Part shown: positions 3,224 to 26,207 of the stretch, piece after piece
Layout of the letters: the number at the start of each line of letters is the position of its first letter
Position numbering within the stretch: the stretch's first letter is position 1
Source: an uncultured Chloroflexia bacterium
GTDB lineage: Bacteria; Chloroflexota; Anaerolineae; CG2-30-64-16
DNA: 64,000 nucleotides
Direction: 5' to 3'
NCBI GenBank assembly: GCA_963774265.1
Contig: CAVZDU010000007.1
Span: forward strand, 384,001-448,000
Translations under genes and position numbers: made by a program
The notes under the pieces: model-generated
Told to the model about the DNA's origin: nothing
Databases searched by the model: none
The model's input: only the letters and a program-made list of their open reading frames with translations

Positions 3224-4642
3224 ATGAAGAAGTCCCCGTATGTCATCTGTGTGCTTCTGCTCGCCGCGATCCTGATCGCGGGCTGCGCGGGCGCACAGCC
3301 CGCCGCCCCGGCGCCGACGGCCGCTCCCGCTGTCGCCGAGCCGACCAAAGCGCCTGAACCGACTGCCGCCCCGGCCGCTGCCGAACCGACCAAGGCGCCC
3401 GAACCGACCGCCGCCCCAGCCGCCAAGCAAAACATCACCCTCACCTACATGGCGAGCCAGGACTGGATCAAGGATGCCGAGCTTGAGTTGGCCAAGAAGT
3501 TCGAGGCTGAGACCGGTATCCACATCGACTACCAGATCATCCCGGCCGATCAATACTTCAATGTGCTGAAGACGAAGCTGAATTCCGGCGAAGCGACCGA
3601 CATCTTCGGTGGCCAGGCCGGCAAGAGCGATCTCAAGCTAAACTACAACGTCGAGCAAAACGCGGTTGATCTCACCGGCGAAGAATGGATCACGCGCGCC
3701 GATCCCAACTCGGTCGATATGGTCTCTTTGGATGGCAAGGTCTATGGCGCCGAAATCTGGGACATCGTCGGCGCGAACTACTTCGTCGTGAACTACAACA
3801 AGGCGATCTTTGAGAAGCTCGGCATCAGCGTGCCGAAGACCTACGCCGAATTCAAGGCCGCCAACGACAAGATCCTGGCCGCTGGCATCACCCCGATCTA
3901 CGAGCCGGTCTCGGACGGCTGGCATCATGTGTTGATGTTCCCGATGACGGGCCCGCGCTTCGAGGAACTCACCCCCGGCTTGTCCGATCAACTGAACGCC
4001 AATAAGACCACGTTCGCCGCAAGCAAGGACATGCTGCTCGCGCTCACGCAGTTGCAGGAAATGTACAAGGCGGGTTACTTCGGCGCGAACGCGTTGGCAG
4101 ACACCTACGCCGACACGCAAAAGGCGATGGCGAGTGGCAAGTATGCCATGACCGTGGCGCCGCTGGGCATGCCCGCCGACATCGAGAAGGCCTATCCTGA
4201 CACAAAGGCCGACACCTTCGGCTTCTTCACGATGCCGCTGGTGGATAACGCCCTGGCCCCCGCCCATCCTGCGGGCCCGGCCAAGTTCATCTACTCCGGC
4301 TCGAAGCACATTGCCGAGGCCAAGCAGTACTTTACCTTCCTGATGAAGCCGGAGAACCTGCAGTATCTGCTCGACAACACGCCGCAGTTCCCGGGGCTGA
4401 ACTTCACCGGTCTGAAGGAGAAGTGGACGCCGGCGCAGGAAGAGTATCTCAAGAACTATCCGGCCAAGGCCATCGTGTACCAGGATTCGGTCAACTACCT
4501 GAACCCGCAGTGGATGGACATCGGCAAGGACTTGACCGCGATGTTCACCGGCGCGCTCACACCGGAAGACGTGCTGAAGAACATTGATCAGCGCCGCGCC
4601 GATATGGCTACGACCGCGAAGGATCCCGCCTGGGCCAAGTAG
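3224..4642 (+). CDS. Carbohydrate ABC transporter substrate-binding lipoprotein (CUT1)
   Basis: GGAGG RBS, lipobox IAGC, repeated AEPTKAPEPTAAPAA linker, SBP_bac_1-like body. Confidence 0.92.
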   Translation: MKKSPYVICVLLLAAILIAGCAGAQPAAPAPTAAPAVAEPTKAPEPTAAPAAAEPTKAPEPTAAPAAKQNITLTYMASQDWIKDAELELAKKFEAETGIHIDYQIIPADQYFNVLKTKLNSGEATDIFGGQAGKSDLKLNYNVEQNAVDLTGEEWITRADPNSVDMVSLDGKVYGAEIWDIVGANYFVVNYNKAIFEKLGISVPKTYAEFKAANDKILAAGITPIYEPVSDGWHHVLMFPMTGPRFEELTPGLSDQLNANKTTFAASKDMLLALTQLQEMYKAGYFGANALADTYADTQKAMASGKYAMTVAPLGMPADIEKAYPDTKADTFGFFTMPLVDNALAPAHPAGPAKFIYSGSKHIAEAKQYFTFLMKPENLQYLLDNTPQFPGLNFTGLKEKWTPAQEEYLKNYPAKAIVYQDSVNYLNPQWMDIGKDLTAMFTGALTPEDVLKNIDQRRADMATTAKDPAWAK

Positions 4643-4690
4643 TCGTCAGGATCAGTGAGAAGCGGAACGTAGCTGCTTAGAGCTGCGTTA

Positions 4691-4840
4691 GTTGCCCCCT
4701 CCCTTCCCGCCGCGGCAGGAGAGGGAGATACGAAAGGGGTTTTGCGGGCGGCCGCGCCGCCCGCAAAACCCTCGAAGAAGATTTCCCTCGCCTTCAGCAT
4801 CCCCCGTGGTTGCGGGGACGCCGAAGGCGAGGGGGCAGCG
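4691..4840. repeat. Intercistronic multi-hairpin element
   Basis: Three nested inverted repeats including GGGTTTTGCGGGCGGC-cgc-GCCGCCCGCAAAACCC, closed by GTTGCCCC...GGGGCAGC. Confidence 0.75.
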
Positions 4841-4914
4841 CCTCATACCTGCGCGAGTCGGCACCAAGAGAATTGCTCTGCCACCCATGGTCCGCCTGTA
4901 CCGCGACGAAAGAT

Positions 4915-5788
4915 ATGAAAAGCAAACCTTACCCGTTCTACCTGATCATTCCCGCGCTGGCGCTCTATTTGACTCTTCAGCGTCATCCCCAGTGTGATGG
5001 GCTTTTTCTATTCCTTCACGGATTGGAACAGTTTCTCGAGTGAGATCAATTTCGTGGGGCTGGATAATGTCAGGCTGATCTTCTCGGCCAATCGAGGTTA
5101 CCTGGCAGTCATTCAGCACACCGTCGTCTTCACTATCGCCACCATCATTATCAAAACGGTGATCTCGCTCGGGCTGGCGTTACTGTTGACCAGAGGCATC
5201 CGGCGGTTTGCCAACTTCCACCGCGTGATCATCTATCTGCCAGCGGTCTTGCCGATGCTGGTCATCAGCCTGGTCTTCAAGTCAATCCTGAACCCGGCCA
5301 CCGGTCTACTCAACACCTCCTTGCGTGCGATCGGGCTGGGCGCGCTCGCGCAAGGCTGGCTGATTGATCCGAAGTGGGCTATGCCCTCGATCATCGGCGT
5401 TGATGTCTGGCGCGGGGTGGGCTACCTGATGGTAATCCTGATCGCAGGTATTCAGGCGATTCCCAAGGACTACTACGAAGCCGCGGCCATTGACGGCGCA
5501 AGTGGCTTCGCAGTATTCCGCTACATCATGCTCCCGATGCTGATGCCGGTGCTCGCTGTGACCACCGTGCTGAACCTGCTGTACGCGCTCAAAGTGTTTG
5601 ATGTGGTGTTTGTGTTGACCAACGGCGGACCTGGGCGCGCAACCGATACCGTCTACACCGCCATCTTCGACGAGTTCTCCAAAGGCAGATACGGCGTCGC
5701 CACCGCCCTGTCAACGATTCTCTTCCTCATCATGATCGTGCTGGGCTATTTTGTGATCAGGTCGATGCATCGGGAGGAGATCGGGTGA
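4915..5788 (+). CDS. Carbohydrate ABC permease 1, frameshift near 4975
   Basis: MKSKPYPFYLIIPAL N-terminus in one frame, FTDWN...YYEAAAIDGA EAA motif in ORF 4994-5788. Confidence 0.9.
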
Positions 5789-6615
5789 TGACCACGATAA
5801 AGCGCCAACTGGCGCACTTACCCAATCATGTGATAGCAATCGGCGTCAGCCTGTCCATGTTTGTCCCGATCTATCTGCTGATCGTGAACTCGCTCAAAAC
5901 GAGAGCCGAAGCCAGCTCGATGGGCGTTGACCTTCCCGCCGCCTTGCGATGGAGCAATTTCGCCGTCGTGGTCGAGAAGGGCAAACTGGCTACGGCGTTC
6001 GGCAACAGCCTCTTGTATGCCGTCGGCGCGACCGTGATCGGCACCATGCTGGCCGCAATGGCCGCCTATGCGCTGTCGCGCAACCGTACGCGCTTCAATC
6101 GAGGGATCTACTTCCTGATCGTGGCCGGCATTGCGATGCCCACCAACTTCGTCACCCTCACCAAGGTGATGCAAGTGACGCATTTGATCAACACGCAGTT
6201 CGGCATCATTCTGCTTTATGCTGCCATGCAAATCCCCTTCAGCGTATTCCTGATATATGCCTTCGTCGAGACGCTGCCGCGCGAACTGGATGAGGCTGCC
6301 ATCATGGACGGATGCAGCCCGCCCCGGCTGTTTTTCTCGATTATCTTCCCGCTGCTCACGCCGGTGCTGGTTTCTGTGGGTGTGTTGAATCTGCTCAACG
6401 TTTGGAATGAGTTCTTGCTGCCGCTGTATTACCTCAATCGCAGCACAAACTGGCCGATGACCCTGGCGGTCTATAATTTCTTCGGACAATACTCGTCCGA
6501 CTGGAGTCTGGTCTCTGCTGATGCCGTGCTCACCGTCCTGCCGGTCATCATCATTTACCTGCTCGCGCAACGCTTCATCATCGCTGGCATGACGACCGGC
6601 GCGGTGAAAGGCTGA
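5785..6615 (+). CDS. Carbohydrate ABC permease 2
   Basis: ELDEAAIMDGC EAA motif, WNEF, GMTTGAVKG C-terminus. Confidence 0.93.
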   Translation: MMTTIKRQLAHLPNHVIAIGVSLSMFVPIYLLIVNSLKTRAEASSMGVDLPAALRWSNFAVVVEKGKLATAFGNSLLYAVGATVIGTMLAAMAAYALSRNRTRFNRGIYFLIVAGIAMPTNFVTLTKVMQVTHLINTQFGIILLYAAMQIPFSVFLIYAFVETLPRELDEAAIMDGCSPPRLFFSIIFPLLTPVLVSVGVLNLLNVWNEFLLPLYYLNRSTNWPMTLAVYNFFGQYSSDWSLVSADAVLTVLPVIIIYLLAQRFIIAGMTTGAVKG

Positions 6616-6620
6616 AGGGC

Positions 6621-7691
6621 GTGAACGAGCTTCTTTGGAAGGAAAACTGGGAGGAATCCCGGCAACACTACCTGGACTGGTGGGCCGGACACGGCCTGGT
6701 CATCAGCATGTGGGAGCACCTGCCCAAGGAAGGCGTGCCGCATGAGGAGGTGCCTGCCCCCGCGCCGGCCAGGGACTGGCAACAGTACTGGTTCGACCCG
6801 GAATGGCGCGCCGCCAATCTTCACTACCAGTTATCCCGCAGCTCGTTCAAGGCCGACATCCTGCCGGTGGCCAACACCCACCTCGGACCGGGCTCGCTGG
6901 CCGCGATCCTCGGCGCTGAGCTCGAGGGCGGCGAAGATACCATCTGGATCCATCCCCGCGCCGAACAAAGCGACGCCATCGTCCTCGATGAAAACAACCG
7001 GTGGTGGCGCACGCATCTCGACCTGATCCGCGCATGCAAACGCCGCGCGCAGGGCCGATACTTCGTCGGCTGCCCGGACTTGATCGAGGGCCTCGACACG
7101 CTGGCCGCGCTGCGCGGCACGCAGCCGGTGCTGCTGGATATGATGGATCGGCCCGCAGAACTGGCGCAGCAGGTGCAGGCGATCAACGACATCTGGTTCC
7201 AGGTCTTCGAGCGGATCTACGGCGAGATCAACGAAGGCGGCGAAATGGCCTTCTGCTACTTCTCCATCTGGGGGCCGGGCCGGGTGGCCAAGCTCCAGAG
7301 CGACATTTCGGGCATGATTTCAACCAGGAATTTCCGCCGGTTCGTGCAGCCGTTCATCCGCGAACAATGCCAGCGGTTGGACTATTCGCTCTATCACCTG
7401 GATGGGGTGGCCGCAATGCGCCACCTCGACGCACTGCTGGAAATCGAGGAGCTGAACGCCATCCAGTGGACGCCCGGCGTCGGCCAGCCGCAGGGCGGGG
7501 ATCCGTGTTGGTATGACCTGTACAAGCGGATACGCGCCGGGGGCAAGGCGATCATGCCCTGCTGGGTGGAGCTGAACGAATTGCAGCCCCTGCTCGACGC
7601 AGTGGGCCCGGCCGGGGTGAATGTGCTCATGCACTTTCAGTCGGAGCGGGACATCGATGCCGCACTAGAAATCGCGGCGCATTACCGGTGA
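6621..7691 (+). CDS. URO-D/methyltransferase-like TIM-barrel protein
   Basis: ALRG...LLDMMDRP, LQSD, YHLDG, IQWTPG motifs of the URO-D-like family. Confidence 0.7.
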   Translation: MNELLWKENWEESRQHYLDWWAGHGLVISMWEHLPKEGVPHEEVPAPAPARDWQQYWFDPEWRAANLHYQLSRSSFKADILPVANTHLGPGSLAAILGAELEGGEDTIWIHPRAEQSDAIVLDENNRWWRTHLDLIRACKRRAQGRYFVGCPDLIEGLDTLAALRGTQPVLLDMMDRPAELAQQVQAINDIWFQVFERIYGEINEGGEMAFCYFSIWGPGRVAKLQSDISGMISTRNFRRFVQPFIREQCQRLDYSLYHLDGVAAMRHLDALLEIEELNAIQWTPGVGQPQGGDPCWYDLYKRIRAGGKAIMPCWVELNELQPLLDAVGPAGVNVLMHFQSERDIDAALEIAAHYR

Positions 7692-21385: not shown

Positions 21386-22678
21386 TTAGTAGTAAGTCTG
21401 CAGGAATGTCTGGCCGAGAGCGATGCAGCCCTGGCGGTTGGCGCACTTGTCCGCAGTTGGCTCGACGTACAGGTCCCAGTTGTGCGAGCCGCCGTTGGGA
21501 AGCTGCGCAGCGACGCGGTAGCGCCCCACCCCTTGAAGTTCGAACTGATACCGCCCCGCCTTATCGCCCACTTTGCCCTCGACGCGGAAATTCTTGTCGT
21601 TGACCTGCACCGTGATATATCGTCCGATATGGTTCTCGATCACCAGCCACGCGAGGTTATTGTTTGTCGGCTGCTTGGGCGCGGGGGGTGGCGTCGGCGC
21701 GACCGCCACAGCCATCTGGGCGAAGTCGATCGACATTCCGAGATACTGCGTGCTGGCCCACGCCTCGCGTATCTTCGGCAAATTAAGCTTGGCCCATTTG
21801 CTGTCCTTGCTGCGACCCACGATGTCGACGCCGTCGCCCTTCTTCAGCGAGCCGACGATCGGGTAGTTTGTCCCCGGACCTGACCGCACATTAAGCGTAA
21901 CGGACGTGACGACGGCATCGGCAGCCGGCTGCGGCGTCGCAGTGGGCGTGGAGCGGCTGATGCTCTTCCGCCCCGGAATCGACGCCGGTTTGTTCCAAAG
22001 TCTGAAGTTATCGAAAGTGACCTCCAGTCCACCGTCCTTGTTCGTCCCAGCGATCAGGGCGATTTCGCCCTCTGTGAAGCTGCGATCCTGCACTCGCTTC
22101 AGCTCCTCATCGTTGGCCAGCACCACGATCTCCCTGCCGTTAGCAGCCACAGCCAGGCGGTTCTCGGCGCCTTCGCCCGCGTTCAGTGCGCCGGTTTCCG
22201 TCCAGTCAACCAGGCGGTCCAGCTCGCCGTCGATGTAGGCCAGCACCGCGAAGTAGCCCTCTGCGTCGGCCAGGAAGGCATAGAAATTGTCCGCGTCGGT
22301 ATAGCGGAAGATCATGCCCATCATGCCATCGGCAGGACCGTCGATGTGGGTGGCGAGGATCTCAACGTAGAAGTCTTTGAAGGCATCATCACTGTCGAGT
22401 GTCACCCAGCGGAACAATTCCCCCTCAGGCACCTGCACAGTCAAGCGCCCGCGGTTGATGAAGCTGAGCGCCTCGCTTCCGCTTTCGACATTCCACTGTC
22501 CCGAGTCTCGGCTGAAGTTGTCTTCGAGCGCCGGGTTGCCTTCGCGCCATTGGGACACGTCGGCGCCTTGCGCGGCGGCAAACCCAGGCTGCATGAATAG
22601 GACGAGGAACAACAGCGCGACGCAGCGCGCCGGGGGGATGGAATGACGACGCAACATATGCGGTTTCTCCTCAGGCAA
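21386..22678 (-). CDS. Secreted protein with lectin-like beta-sandwich and bacterial SH3 domain
   Basis: Signal peptide, DNFS...FDNF beta-sandwich, Pro/Thr linkers, LNVRSGPGTNY SH3b motif. Confidence 0.8.
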   Translation of the reverse strand: MPEEKPHMLRRHSIPPARCVALLFLVLFMQPGFAAAQGADVSQWREGNPALEDNFSRDSGQWNVESGSEALSFINRGRLTVQVPEGELFRWVTLDSDDAFKDFYVEILATHIDGPADGMMGMIFRYTDADNFYAFLADAEGYFAVLAYIDGELDRLVDWTETGALNAGEGAENRLAVAANGREIVVLANDEELKRVQDRSFTEGEIALIAGTNKDGGLEVTFDNFRLWNKPASIPGRKSISRSTPTATPQPAADAVVTSVTLNVRSGPGTNYPIVGSLKKGDGVDIVGRSKDSKWAKLNLPKIREAWASTQYLGMSIDFAQMAVAVAPTPPPAPKQPTNNNLAWLVIENHIGRYITVQVNDKNFRVEGKVGDKAGRYQFELQGVGRYRVAAQLPNGGSHNWDLYVEPTADKCANRQGCIALGQTFLQTYY

Positions 22679-23123: not shown

Positions 23124-23222
23124 ACGCACCGCCAGTCGGGTTTGAGGTGGAGGGGCCGCGCACGCAGCGCGGCCCCTCCTGTGTGCGGGTTATACGCGGG
23201 CGGTGGGTTCCGCCGCGGATCC

Positions 23223-23606
23223 TCAACCCAGGCGCCGTGTCTTCACGAAGTCGACCAGAATGTCGAGCATCTGCTTACGATAGGCCACAGCCTCCATAAC
23301 GTGGCGCTCATGCAGATCGTACACTGCCTGCGGCACGCGCAGCTCACCGGCTTCGAGCAGGATCGGAACAACGACGTACCGGTCGCCGTCGATGCTGATC
23401 TCAGTGCGAGCGATCTCGGCTTTTTCCGCCGTGATCTGAATGCCTGCGGACCCGTTGACGACTTGCACGTTGGTGGACACGGTCAGTTTGCTGCCGTCTG
23501 CGATCTGATCGGCAATGGCCTGCAGTGCACTGCGGATCGACAGCTCAGGGCTGGGATTGATCTTGTTGACGGTCGACGGGGTTTCGGCTTCTCTATTCTC
23601 TGGCAT
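23223..23606 (-). CDS. Hypothetical protein C of three-paralog operon
   Basis: GGAGG RBS; TEISIDGD...HERHVMEAVAYRKQML. Confidence 0.8.
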   Translation of the reverse strand: MPENREAETPSTVNKINPSPELSIRSALQAIADQIADGSKLTVSTNVQVVNGSAGIQITAEKAEIARTEISIDGDRYVVVPILLEAGELRVPQAVYDLHERHVMEAVAYRKQMLDILVDFVKTRRLG

Positions 23607-23628
23607 TTTGGCAAACCTCCTGGAAGTT

Positions 23629-24426
23629 TCAGGCGAGGGCTGGCAGCGCCCGGAGCGCCTGCATTTGGTCGATGATCTGGCGAACGAAGCGATAGGCCGC
23701 GGGCAGCGCAAGAAGCGGCGTGGCGGCAAACAGGACGGCAAGCTGAATGGCGCCGCGCACCACGGTCAACGCAAGGCGGAGCCACGCGTCACGCGTGCGC
23801 AGGGCCAGGCTGACCGCGCGGATGTGCTGCCGCGCATCATCCGTGGACAGCCCAGACGCCCATGCCGTGCGCATGTCGCCTGTCCACGACACGCGCGTGA
23901 GCGCGGCCCGCGCGTCGCCGAGGCTTGTTTCAACAACGGTGAAGTCACGCACTGCCTCACGAACCTTGGCGAAGAAGGCTTCGGTCCTTTCAACGGCTTG
24001 CTGGAAGGCCGGCACTGCGGCGAGATCGTCCATCGGCTGACCGGGACGCTCCCGCAAGTCAAGATCGCCCGCGGATTGACTCATGGCGGACCAGGATGCG
24101 AGCTCCAGCTCCGGCGCCTCCAGCCCGGGCGCGATCGCTGGCGATGGGCCGCCTGCTGCTGCGAAGGCCCTGAGCCGGTTCTCAGCCTGCGGCAGGGCGG
24201 ATTCGGCGACGGCAAGGCGTGCTTCGGCCAGGTCCAGGGCCTGGTCTGCTGCGCTCCGGTCTTTGGGGAGCGCAATCAGCCACAGATTCACGTCGCCAGG
24301 TGCGTCGGCTGCGGCGGGGCCAACGCCGGTGCTCTCCAGGCCGGCGTCGCCTGGCGCAGCAGGGGACGCCGGCTGCCACACCCCCAGCTCGTCCTCCGCA
24401 ACGGCAGGCCCGATGAATGCGGCCAT
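23629..24426 (-). CDS. Hypothetical protein B of three-paralog operon, hydrophobic C-terminus
   Basis: Starts 1 bp after the upstream stop; helical N-terminal region; TRVSWTGD...HIRAVSLALRTRDAWL. Confidence 0.8.
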   Translation of the reverse strand: MAAFIGPAVAEDELGVWQPASPAAPGDAGLESTGVGPAAADAPGDVNLWLIALPKDRSAADQALDLAEARLAVAESALPQAENRLRAFAAAGGPSPAIAPGLEAPELELASWSAMSQSAGDLDLRERPGQPMDDLAAVPAFQQAVERTEAFFAKVREAVRDFTVVETSLGDARAALTRVSWTGDMRTAWASGLSTDDARQHIRAVSLALRTRDAWLRLALTVVRGAIQLAVLFAATPLLALPAAYRFVRQIIDQMQALRALPALA

Positions 24427-24427
24427 A

Positions 24428-24997
24428 TCACTTGATGGTCGGGATGAAGCCGGCGATCAGCTCACCGACTGTCCTGAGCATCGCCTGGCGATGCGCCTGC
24501 GCCTGCTCGACAGTCTGAGAGTGAATCTGCCACAGCGCCTCGTCGATCTGCCCTGCGTCGACTGGCACGACGACCAGCGTGTCTCCGTCGAGTTTGATGT
24601 ACGTCATGGCGCGCGGCTGGGCGTGCGTGAAGCCCATTACGGCATCCGGGCGGACGTCCTCGATGCGCTCGGAGACGAAGGTGCGCACCTCGAGCGTCGT
24701 GACGTCATTCGCGAAGTCGATGAGCTTGTCGCCGAGCGTTTCGAGGGCCGACTTGAGTTTGTCCGTCACCTGTTTGAAGGGGCTGACCGTTGGCTCTTCC
24801 GTGCTCGTGCCCCCGAAGATGCTGAAGGCCTCAGGCGTGAAGGTTTCCAGGGCCGTCAGGTTTGACATCGCCTGGGTCGGGATGACCGTGATGGTGACGT
24901 GCCCCTGGGGACTGACCTGCACAGTCACAGGGCCCGCAGACGTGCTGGCTGGGGGAGCGATTTCCGCGCTGCCGGTGGATGGATCGGCTTCAGGCAT
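24428..24997 (-). CDS. Hypothetical protein A of three-paralog operon
   Basis: GGGAG RBS, TGCTATAAT extended -10 near 25030-25038; TYIKLDGD...HSQTVEQAQAHRQAML. Confidence 0.8.
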   Translation of the reverse strand: MPEADPSTGSAEIAPPASTSAGPVTVQVSPQGHVTITVIPTQAMSNLTALETFTPEAFSIFGGTSTEEPTVSPFKQVTDKLKSALETLGDKLIDFANDVTTLEVRTFVSERIEDVRPDAVMGFTHAQPRAMTYIKLDGDTLVVVPVDAGQIDEALWQIHSQTVEQAQAHRQAMLRTVGELIAGFIPTIK

Positions 24998-25074
24998 GGC
25001 ATTCTCCCTGCGAGTAGGATGTGAGAGCAATTATAGCACAAATGGCGCGCCGGGGTTCCTGTCAAGATCAACAG

Positions 25075-25103
25075 TTGACACCCTACCTGCCCTGTGCTAT
25101 TTT
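25075..25103 (+). promoter_or_regulatory. Sigma70 promoter of the AfuABC-like operon
   Basis: TTGACA, 17 bp spacer, TGcTATTTT. Confidence 0.6.
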
Positions 25104-25169
25104 ATCGTCGACGAAGGAGTTTCGTCCCCGTCACCCCGGAATCCACATCAGAGTCTTCAAGGAGGAAGC

Positions 25170-26207
25170 ATGAACCGCAAAGTCCAGACGCTCGTCTCGC
25201 TACTTTTTATCTTTGCTGTACTGCTGGCAGGCTGCGGTCCCGCAGCCGCACCGGCCAGCAAGGAAGTGAATGTGCTGTGCACCCCCCAGGAGGAGTGGTG
25301 CCAGGGCATGAAGCAGGAGTTCGAGGCCAAGTACGGCGTCACGGTCAACTACGTCCGCATGTCGAGCGGCGAGGCATTGGCCCGCGTCCGTGCCGAGAAG
25401 GAGAACCCGCAATTCGACATCTGGTGGGGTGGCCCCATGGACAGCTTCGTGGCTGCGAAGCAGGAGGGGTTGCTTGAGCCATACAACTCTCCCAGCTACG
25501 CGAATCTGCTCGACCAGGCCAAATACAAGGATGTTGATAACCAATACGCCGGCATCTACGTGGGAAGCCTCGCCTTCTGCACCAACAAGGACTGGCTCGC
25601 CAAGAACCCCGGCATGAGCGCGCCCAAGTCATGGGACGACCTGCTGAAGCCCGAGTTCAAGGGCCAGGTCATCGTGGCACACCCGTCGACCTCCGGCACC
25701 TCCTACACCGCGCTGGCCACCATTCTCCAGATCCGCGGCGAAACAGCGGGCTGGGAATACATCAAGAAATACGCGGGCCAGATCTCGCAGTACACCAAGA
25801 GCGGTGCAGCCCCCGCGAAATTCGTTGGCCAGGGTGAGGCGGTCGTGGGGATCGTCTTCTCGCACGACATCGTGAACGAGATTGACAACAATAAGATGCC
25901 CCTTGTGCTCACTTTCCCCGAGGAAGGCACGGGCTATGAGATCGGCGCGATGGGCATTATCAAGGGCGCCAAGCACATGGACCTCGCCAAGAAGTGGTTT
26001 GACTGGGCGTTGACCGCCGAGGCTCAGAAGCTGGGCCCGAAGTACAAGGCGTACCAGGCGCCGACCGTGAAGGGCGTCGAGCTCTCTCATCCCGAGCTGC
26101 TCCAGGTCAAGTTGATTAACTATGACTTCCAGTGGGCCGGTACGAACAAGAAAGCCTTCGTCGACAAGTTCACCAACGAGATCGCCGCGGCCGACCAACT
26201 TAAGTAA
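25170..26207 (+). CDS. AfuA/FbpA-type ABC substrate-binding lipoprotein
   Basis: GGAGG RBS, LAGC lipobox, RMSSGE, DIWWGG, PSTSGTSY, PEEGTGYEIG. Confidence 0.9.
   Translation: MNRKVQTLVSLLFIFAVLLAGCGPAAAPASKEVNVLCTPQEEWCQGMKQEFEAKYGVTVNYVRMSSGEALARVRAEKENPQFDIWWGGPMDSFVAAKQEGLLEPYNSPSYANLLDQAKYKDVDNQYAGIYVGSLAFCTNKDWLAKNPGMSAPKSWDDLLKPEFKGQVIVAHPSTSGTSYTALATILQIRGETAGWEYIKKYAGQISQYTKSGAAPAKFVGQGEAVVGIVFSHDIVNEIDNNKMPLVLTFPEEGTGYEIGAMGIIKGAKHMDLAKKWFDWALTAEAQKLGPKYKAYQAPTVKGVELSHPELLQVKLINYDFQWAGTNKKAFVDKFTNEIAAADQLK

Follow-up and report, generated by a model that had tools for sequence, protein, structure and literature searches.

Protease-linked effector modules, among them gasdermins, EACC1, Pepco and Craspase/CalpL, are becoming a major theme in bacterial immunity and regulated cell death, and their catalogue has been built from named domains. 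Here we describe an operon of three genes, A, B and C, found in a 64,000-nucleotide (nt) stretch of DNA from an uncultured Chloroflexia bacterium (contig CAVZDU010000007.1 of assembly GCA_963774265.1, positions 384,001 to 448,000; hereafter the window). We read it as a lineage-specific, protease-less form of a conserved, unnamed module that consists of a C25-like protease fused to a small domain, called X below, a partner protein (B) and a free copy of X (C), with docking and effector roles that would fall to X and B; the chances that this reading is right are, in our judgement, about even. It is carried by the homology of A and C, the probable homology of B, the conserved synteny, the protease fusions, the occasional embedding among STAND and CHAT-SIR2 genes, the split of the module in this genome and the purifying selection acting on the three genes.

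The closest described systems follow a principle laid out for conflict systems of multicellular prokaryotes (Kaur, Burroughs, Iyer and Aravind 2020, PMC7159879; 2021, PMC8195603). In these, one small domain (effector-associated domain, EAD) occurs both as a fusion to an effector and as a free-standing product of neighbouring genes, and such domains are described there as nearly all α-helical. X follows this principle, with fused and free adjacent copies and a STAND/caspase context: it is small, apparently non-catalytic and fused to a protease, with paralogous free copies in adjacent genes, and it is found inside a STAND NTPase, near CHAT, SIR2 and nSTAND1 genes, and enriched in Chloroflexota and Myxococcota. 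Unlike the EADs so described, X is an α+β domain with a β-meander that forms the C-terminal end of a C25-like protease, and a constant partner, B, lies between its two copies. With regard to EAD1-12, A, B and C match no Pfam family at E <= 1, whichever EAD models the 2025 library includes, and in the 70 long members of the family that were listed Pfam recognised nothing apart from protease and other effector domains.

The same papers report pairs of EACC1 and a caspase in multicellular bacteria, and a preprint reports that site-specific proteolysis turns EACC1 and Pepco into active pore-formers (Evans et al. 2025, bioRxiv 10.1101/2025.11.14.688446). The present module resembles the EACC1-caspase pairs in combining a caspase-superfamily protease with a small, constant partner protein, in which a single conserved hydrophobic helix has α+β flanks (predicted, in the case of B). 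The proposed logic would also be shared, namely that a membrane effector is set free by proteolysis, as reported for EACC1. B has about 250 residues and a single hydrophobic helix, adjoins A in 42 of 49 loci, and matches no family; no EACC1 sequence match was detected for it. In contrast to those pairs, the protease is here on the 5′ side, so that the order is reversed, B has an X-like core, there is a third gene, C, and pore formation by B or its cleavage could be proposed by analogy only. Small proteins beside caspase-like or trypsin-like proteases, often STAND-linked, are also known from Pepco/Trypco, bacterial gasdermins and CATASP (bioRxiv 10.1101/2025.11.14.688446). Unlike gasdermin and Pepco, which are β-rich (gasdermin also has a short inhibitory peptide at its C-terminus), B is predicted to be mostly helical; neither B nor C has a Pfam or PADLOC match, and gasdermin was absent from the fold matches listed for B.

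The protease itself is similar to Peptidase family C25 (gingipain-like, clan CD caspase fold, PF01364), in that the long form of A (at least 480 residues) and a stand-alone protease of this genome, P0249, score just above the family cut-off and keep the SHG and ACYG motifs. The A protein of the window differs from gingipain-type members by its missing protease domain, and the matches mostly cover the last ~90 positions of the model. Long A and P0249 carry no signal peptide or secretion domain, and are therefore cytoplasmic proteases rather than secreted ones of the gingipain type.

A search of one literature library found no description of the X domain, the B family or the module, although supplementary tables from the Aravind laboratory might list them. 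Pfam gave no match to A, B or C at E <= 1, and none of the three reached the curated cut-off of Peptidase_C25 (PF01364); NCBIfam returned two chance rows for A, far under their cut-offs, and nothing usable for any of the three; every row of a PHROGs scan had E >= 0.14; and PADLOC returned nothing for A, B and C, for the long-form A, B and C or for the stand-alone protease. The statement of the preliminary description that no named family could be recognised thus holds in all four libraries. Sequence profiles of the PDB gave a best E of 1 for A and C together and of 0.53 for B, fold searches returned nothing over background, and a search of the ESM Atlas with C gave no usable match. What is known, then, are protease-linked effector/adaptor modules of STAND/caspase conflict systems, whereas no library model covers X, the B family or the architecture of three genes.

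Distribution and synteny of the module

The three genes of the operon, which were established by reading of open reading frames (ORFs) and their translations, and the parts of their products are as follows (RBS, ribosome-binding site).

24428-24997, minus strand: gene A, 189 residues from ATG; RBS GGGAGAA; disordered N-terminal tail, then the X domain
24431-24781, minus strand: X domain of A, residues ~73-189; helix, β-meander of four to five strands, long helix
23629-24426, minus strand: gene B, 265 residues; N-terminal D-E-L-G-x-W motif, helical hairpin, diverged X-like core, hydrophobic C-terminal helix
23722-24012, minus strand: X-like core of B, residues ~139-235; helix, three strands, long helix (from hhalign and predicted secondary structure)
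23692-23781, minus strand: hydrophobic, possibly membrane-inserting segment of B (predicted), residues ~216-245
23223-23606, minus strand: gene C, 127 residues; RBS GGAGG; X domain alone, a paralogue of the domain of A

All three genes run in the same direction, with one base between the stop of A and the start of B and 22 bases between B and C. The tight packing given in the preliminary description is therefore present, and the sequence motifs quoted there for A, B and C were all found in the translations.

Among 1.84 billion representative proteins, a profile built from A and C (alignment A4) matched 727 clusters at E <= 1e-3, of which 470 remained at a cut-off of 1e-10 and 42 at one of 1e-30. 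Many of the matches are proteins of 640-750 residues with X at their extreme C-terminus. Among the matches listed there were 70 proteins of at least 280 residues, and in 49 of these Pfam recognised Peptidase_C25, always N-terminal to X; CHAT, a combination of Peptidase_C39 and SH3, and a metallophosphoesterase were each found once in the same 70. A further architecture is that of P0232 (2675 residues), in which Trypsin_2, nSTAND1, four tandem X sub-repeats (residues 989-1326) and WD40 are combined, the repeat unit being a partial X made up of a strand, the GD turn, a strand and the start of the helix. Judged from these architectures, X is mainly a C-terminal module of caspase-fold (Peptidase_C25-like) proteases, a context that the preliminary description had missed. 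In an even sample of Chloroflexota, X was found in 21 of 401 genomes, with a patchy distribution concentrated in one family (16 of its 25 genomes), and the usual pattern in this sample was two X matches ~1.1 kb apart. In another, small genome of the same class (G040), C has two marginal matches that are identical to each other (E 0.001; C6:18054-18236 and C32:7187-7369) and lie within a frame of 177 codons; this frame looked unrelated and showed no A-B-C arrangement.

A scan of a genome collection yielded 49 loci, whose ORFs were scanned with hidden Markov models (HMMs) for X, B and C. The Chloroflexota loci belong to Anaerolineae, Oscillochloris, Roseiflexaceae, Chloroheliaceae and Thermoflexales, and the Myxococcota loci to Kofleriaceae, Nannocystis, Haliangium, Paraliomyxa and Polyangiales; one locus is from a metagenome-assembled genome (MAG) labelled Gracilibacteria. 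A was of the long type in 33 loci, short and untruncated in nine, and cut by a contig end in four, leaving three loci with no A assigned upstream: in L058 and L062 the contig ends upstream of B, and in L054 B is followed by a long A. This last locus, in a Nannocystis MAG (4169-6889), has the B homologue before the long A, an order that is changed relative to the other loci. B adjoins A in 42 of the 49 loci (four of the seven misses end <=150 nt from the contig end after A) and C is present in 35, in keeping with the preliminary description, which had taken the three genes as one operon. The window has the same arrangement, that is, A, B and C adjacent on one strand. B occurred with no detected C in seven loci, five of them from Myxococcota, one from a MAG labelled Proteobacteria and one from Anaerolineales (L027). 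In the X-domain tree, the third gene is A-like rather than C-like in L050, L052, L053, L055 and L057, which form an Anaerolineae/Thermoflexales clade; this suggests that in this clade a newly duplicated X of the protease itself may have taken the place of the free copy. L056 has an A-like copy only, at the contig start, where B was not detected. The module also seems to be present in Chloroflexota genomes that are closed and consist of a single contig, and these may be from cultured strains.

Two genes stand immediately ahead of the module in five loci (L027, L039, L047, L050 and L051), one for a CHAT-SIR2_2 protein of ~700 residues and one for an nSTAND1-WD40 protein of ~1200 residues, giving the order CHAT-SIR2_2, nSTAND1-WD40, A, B, (C), and one or both of these genes lie nearby in three more loci (L030, L033 and L055). 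Membership in these neighbour clusters was assigned by BLASTP, with Pfam run on the L039 representatives only. The Myxococcota loci have CHAT, Ser/Thr-kinase-TPR and PLD-helicase genes nearby, and several loci have histidine-kinase-GAF or HAMP-GAF neighbours. Many other loci lack genes of the CHAT or STAND kind and are flanked by histidine kinases, SufE and similar genes.

This range of neighbours bears on what the module does. A proteolytic switch with a regulatory or developmental role in filamentous bacteria, acting in differentiation, stress signalling or protein turnover, in which X would direct the protease to B and B would be a signalling substrate, would agree with the filamentous and social lineages that are favoured (16 of 25 genomes of the Chloroflexaceae-type family f43, and Myxococcota as well), with the histidine-kinase-GAF and HAMP-GAF neighbours, and with the housekeeping genes that surround the cassette in the window. 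However, some loci are linked to CHAT-SIR2, nSTAND1-WD40 and a PLD-helicase gene, and a patchy presence in 21 of 401 Chloroflexota genomes is more typical of accessory conflict genes, so that we regard such a switch as unlikely. If it did apply, the module would join the few systems of this sort that Chloroflexota are known to have.

The other alternative touched by these data is the one that the preliminary description had proposed, namely that A, B and C form a protease-independent structural hetero-oligomer (a filament, a shell or a multi-component pore) with B as the membrane anchor. Three paralogous copies of one small domain in a single operon, the ability of the X unit to be tandemly repeated (P0232), the hydrophobic helix of B and the purifying selection on the cassette in genomes where no protease was found all speak for it, and the sequences would allow the three proteins to assemble by way of their shared domain. 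The protease fusions and the operons with CHAT-SIR2 and nSTAND1-WD40 point to a regulated protease-effector or adaptor system rather than to a free-standing filament or shell; we consider the structural assembly rather improbable, with its best prospects in the short form.

The shared domain and protein B

X is a helix/β-meander/helix domain of ~115 residues common to A and C. The two proteins align by BLASTP with 29% identity over 112 columns (E 6e-10), and by profile-profile comparison with hhalign at a probability of 98% (E 1.5e-13). Membership in the X family was taken as a significant profile match across the helix/β-meander/helix core with the motif T..DGD..P..G..H..A..R, and in the A4 profile search of the genome such a match was obtained for both A (2.7e-74) and C (4.6e-40). 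The X domain of A carries LEVRTFVS, RAMTYIKLDGDTLVVVP and H159 ... R170, and the T, G-D, H and R of the motif are invariant or nearly invariant over hundreds of sequences.

The case of B is different. BLASTP gave no significant match of B to A or C, and the B family was not matched by hmmsearch with the A4 profile. Comparison of narrow, genus-level profiles of B and X gave E 0.13 and 0.14, and a 224-sequence X profile gave E 0.023 against the narrow B family. With the B alignment broadened to 56 sequences from two phyla, hhalign returned E 1e-4, a probability of 58% and a score of 33.4 against the same X profile, compared with 15.3 for the reversed control and 12.9 for the best of 20 column shuffles (none of the 21 controls reached 33.4). 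All of these profile alignments were in the register that the preliminary description had proposed. AlphaFold2 models of A and B, of middling confidence (mean predicted local distance difference test score, pLDDT, 64 for A and 62 for B; cores ~80-87, and 80-87 across residues 101-170 of A), have the same order of elements, that is, a helix, strands and a long helix. Moreover, the motif positions fall at identical places: T132 of A and T177 of B are both the sixth residue of a strand, G138-D139 and G183-D184 both stand directly ahead of the next strand, H159 and H201 are both the seventh residue of the long helix, and R170 and R212 both follow 11 residues past the H. Because the broad-profile match lies above its controls and the models place the motif in the same register, we accept the core of B as probably a very diverged copy of X. 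The claim that all three proteins are paralogs of one domain therefore stands for A and C (E 1.5e-13), and is only probable for B (E 1e-4; not significant by BLASTP).

The near-invariance of T, G-D, H and R could also be explained if X were a small enzyme or a metal-binding domain with a D/H/R active site, an active site being the alternative named in the preliminary description. In B, however, the first D of DGD is replaced by T and the P by W; X measures ~115 residues, with long flanking helices; it is fused to proteases and occurs as four partial tandem repeats in the STAND protein P0232; and PDB sequence and fold searches brought up no enzyme similar to it. Since B lacks these residues and the unit is tandemly repeated, a structural or docking element fits better than an enzyme, and the active-site alternative appears weak and highly improbable.

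Outside its core, B has features of its own. The AlphaFold2 model is mostly helical with three to four strands, and the N-terminal D-E-L-G-x-W motif is conserved in the family. The Kyte-Doolittle mean over 19 residues rises to 1.88 at residues 226-244, and the hydrophobic segment is directly followed by a conserved LALPAAYRF.RQ motif. The helical N-terminal half and the hydrophobic C-terminal helix that the preliminary description had ascribed to B are thus borne out by the model and the hydropathy. Prediction of a complex of the A core, C and B gave scores of 0.64-0.74 with B as the partner, and the score was still 0.70 when C was swapped for an unrelated protein.

Returning to the protease-linked module, we propose that X would be a non-catalytic homotypic docking domain, comparable to the effector-associated domains of STAND/caspase conflict systems, and that pairing could take place among its paralogues, namely the X of A, C and the diverged X-like core of B. 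As the protease's constant partner, and with its conserved hydrophobic helix, B would likely be a latent membrane effector or a substrate, released or activated by proteolysis, while C, as a free X copy, may regulate or cap the assembly. A more specific version, in which X would be a new β-sheet homotypic assembly domain, a functional analogue in prokaryotes of Death/CARD adaptors, that nucleates the protease, B as a latent membrane-disrupting effector and C as a free regulatory copy into a so far unrecognised cell-death module of filamentous and social bacteria, is possible but seems doubtful to us; the window lineage would then be a natural experiment in which the protease and the effector half are genetically uncoupled. 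In any case, a domain family of several hundred clusters and its conserved partner B, found on caspase-fold proteases, are unnamed in any library. If B did act as a membrane effector licensed by the protease, with X serving for docking, the catalogue of such systems would gain a new module and a new adaptor fold.

The split module in the window lineage

Residues 18-189 of A align to residues 543-710 of P0102, a protein of 710 residues, with 47% identity (E 2e-43), and the alignment takes in the GP.T.Q.SPQG.VTI hairpin of the inter-domain linker. A thus corresponds to the C-terminal piece (~170 residues) of a long form, and in this lineage the first gene encodes just the inter-domain linker and X. 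No protease domain was found in A itself, which has 189 residues and no Pfam match. The genome (G000) does encode the stand-alone protease P0249 (477 residues; 392904-394334), on contig C3 and thus not on the contig of the cassette. P0249 is 48% identical to residues 3-481 of the long A of L039 by tblastn (51% by genome search), and it scores 24.7 bits against PF01364, for which the cut-off is 23. It keeps SHG and FACYGAGTP, and ends just past GDPAVRL, which is the end of the protease domain. SHG and ACYG presumably mark the His/Cys dyad of clan CD. By these motifs P0249 is a catalytically intact stand-alone protease of the module's kind. It is convergent with an nSTAND1-WD40 gene, which is itself preceded by a CHAT-SIR2_2 gene (locus L074:3583-11335); the CHAT-SIR2_2 gene has one frame switch near its start. 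On the protease-linked reading, the X-B-C set of this genome either would use the protease in trans or would have turned protease-independent.

The cassette genes carrying X and the gene for B are each single-copy in the genome. The short cassette was found in all eight genomes of the genus, with all three ORFs intact, and in the relatives it adjoins the same ABC-transporter or miaA genes. The ratio of nonsynonymous to synonymous substitution rates (dN/dS), measured against three relatives, was 0.20-0.29 for A, 0.18-0.31 for B and 0.20-0.22 for C, and the protease-less cassette is therefore kept by selection. These data also bear on whether the cassette could be in decay since the protease domain was lost. 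Such decay would account for the domain missing from A and for the frame-shifted STAND gene of the genome, but it is opposed by the ORFs intact in eight of eight genomes, by dN/dS values of 0.18-0.31 and by the retained RBSs and -10 element, and we hold it to be extremely improbable. The naturally split version found in this lineage should be useful for dissecting the protease-dependent parts of the module.

In the X-domain tree, A-type and C-type sequences are separated with full support. This tree comes from a quick search with a midpoint root and crude short and long labels, several third-gene proteins being labelled 'Ashort', and it leaves the choice between fission and fusion unsettled. 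We infer that fission is the derived state because the long form spans phyla, the linker is homologous and the protease is precisely truncated.

Several observations weigh against the protease-less module reading as a whole. The tree places the short-A clade of the window outside a well-supported clade of all long forms. The P0249-type protease was found in only three of the eight genus genomes (completeness 75-90%), and it is stand-alone in other genera in which the cassette was not found with C as the query; protease and cassette are thus not co-inherited. The nSTAND1-WD40 gene beside P0249 has at least three frame switches (by tblastn), whether through decay or through an error of long-read assembly. 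Most loci, including those of Chloroflexia and many of Myxococcota, have no STAND or CHAT neighbour, which makes the conflict context facultative, and the neighbours of the cassette in the window are housekeeping genes. Furthermore, no PADLOC model fits the long-form A, B or C, confidence in the models is middling (mean pLDDT 64 and 62), and binding, cleavage and membrane action are so far predictions for this module.

Transcription signals and genes around the cassette

The window has a G+C content of 59-67%, and its nearest named relatives are uncultured Anaerolineales (Chloroflexota) MAGs. Downstream of the cassette lie miaA and genes for a class II aldolase and an SH3-domain protein; upstream there is a divergent ABC transporter. 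The SH3 protein (21386-22678) proved to be unrelated to the SH3/C39 protein found ahead of A in L025. Two signals were noted on the strand of the operon.

25030-25038, minus strand: TGcTATAAT, an extended -10 promoter-like element upstream of A (sequence reading)
23149-23179, minus strand: possible terminator or transcript-stabilising hairpin, with a perfect GC-rich stem of 13 bp, 44 nt past the stop of C, no U-tract

The preliminary description had credited the operon with its own extended -10 promoter. The element is there, but a properly spaced -35 is not: a TTGACA near it sits 24 nt upstream, the wrong spacing for a -35 of A, and a two-hexamer promoter consensus scan listed no minus-strand site. 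At the other end, the 106-nt fold containing the hairpin has a predicted energy of -56.3 kcal/mol (z -4.5), which was equalled by none of 200 shuffles. Contigs from RNA libraries, with 98-99% identity, span 23311-23586, that is, C only, at a depth of ~2, the run data having covered small shares of the stretch; they give a weak hint of transcription.

Long ORFs are also present in antisense to A and B (23515-24435, 24083-24865 and 24579-26207, all on the plus strand), as is frequent in high-GC DNA. They are most likely not genes, because homology and dN/dS back the genes on the minus strand. Finally, the promoter region of A-B-C shares a divergent intergenic space of ~170 nt with the gene for the ABC-transporter substrate-binding protein (25170-26207), and a good σ70-like match (TTGACA, 17 nt, TATTTT, with TG) at 25075-25103 on the plus strand faces that gene.

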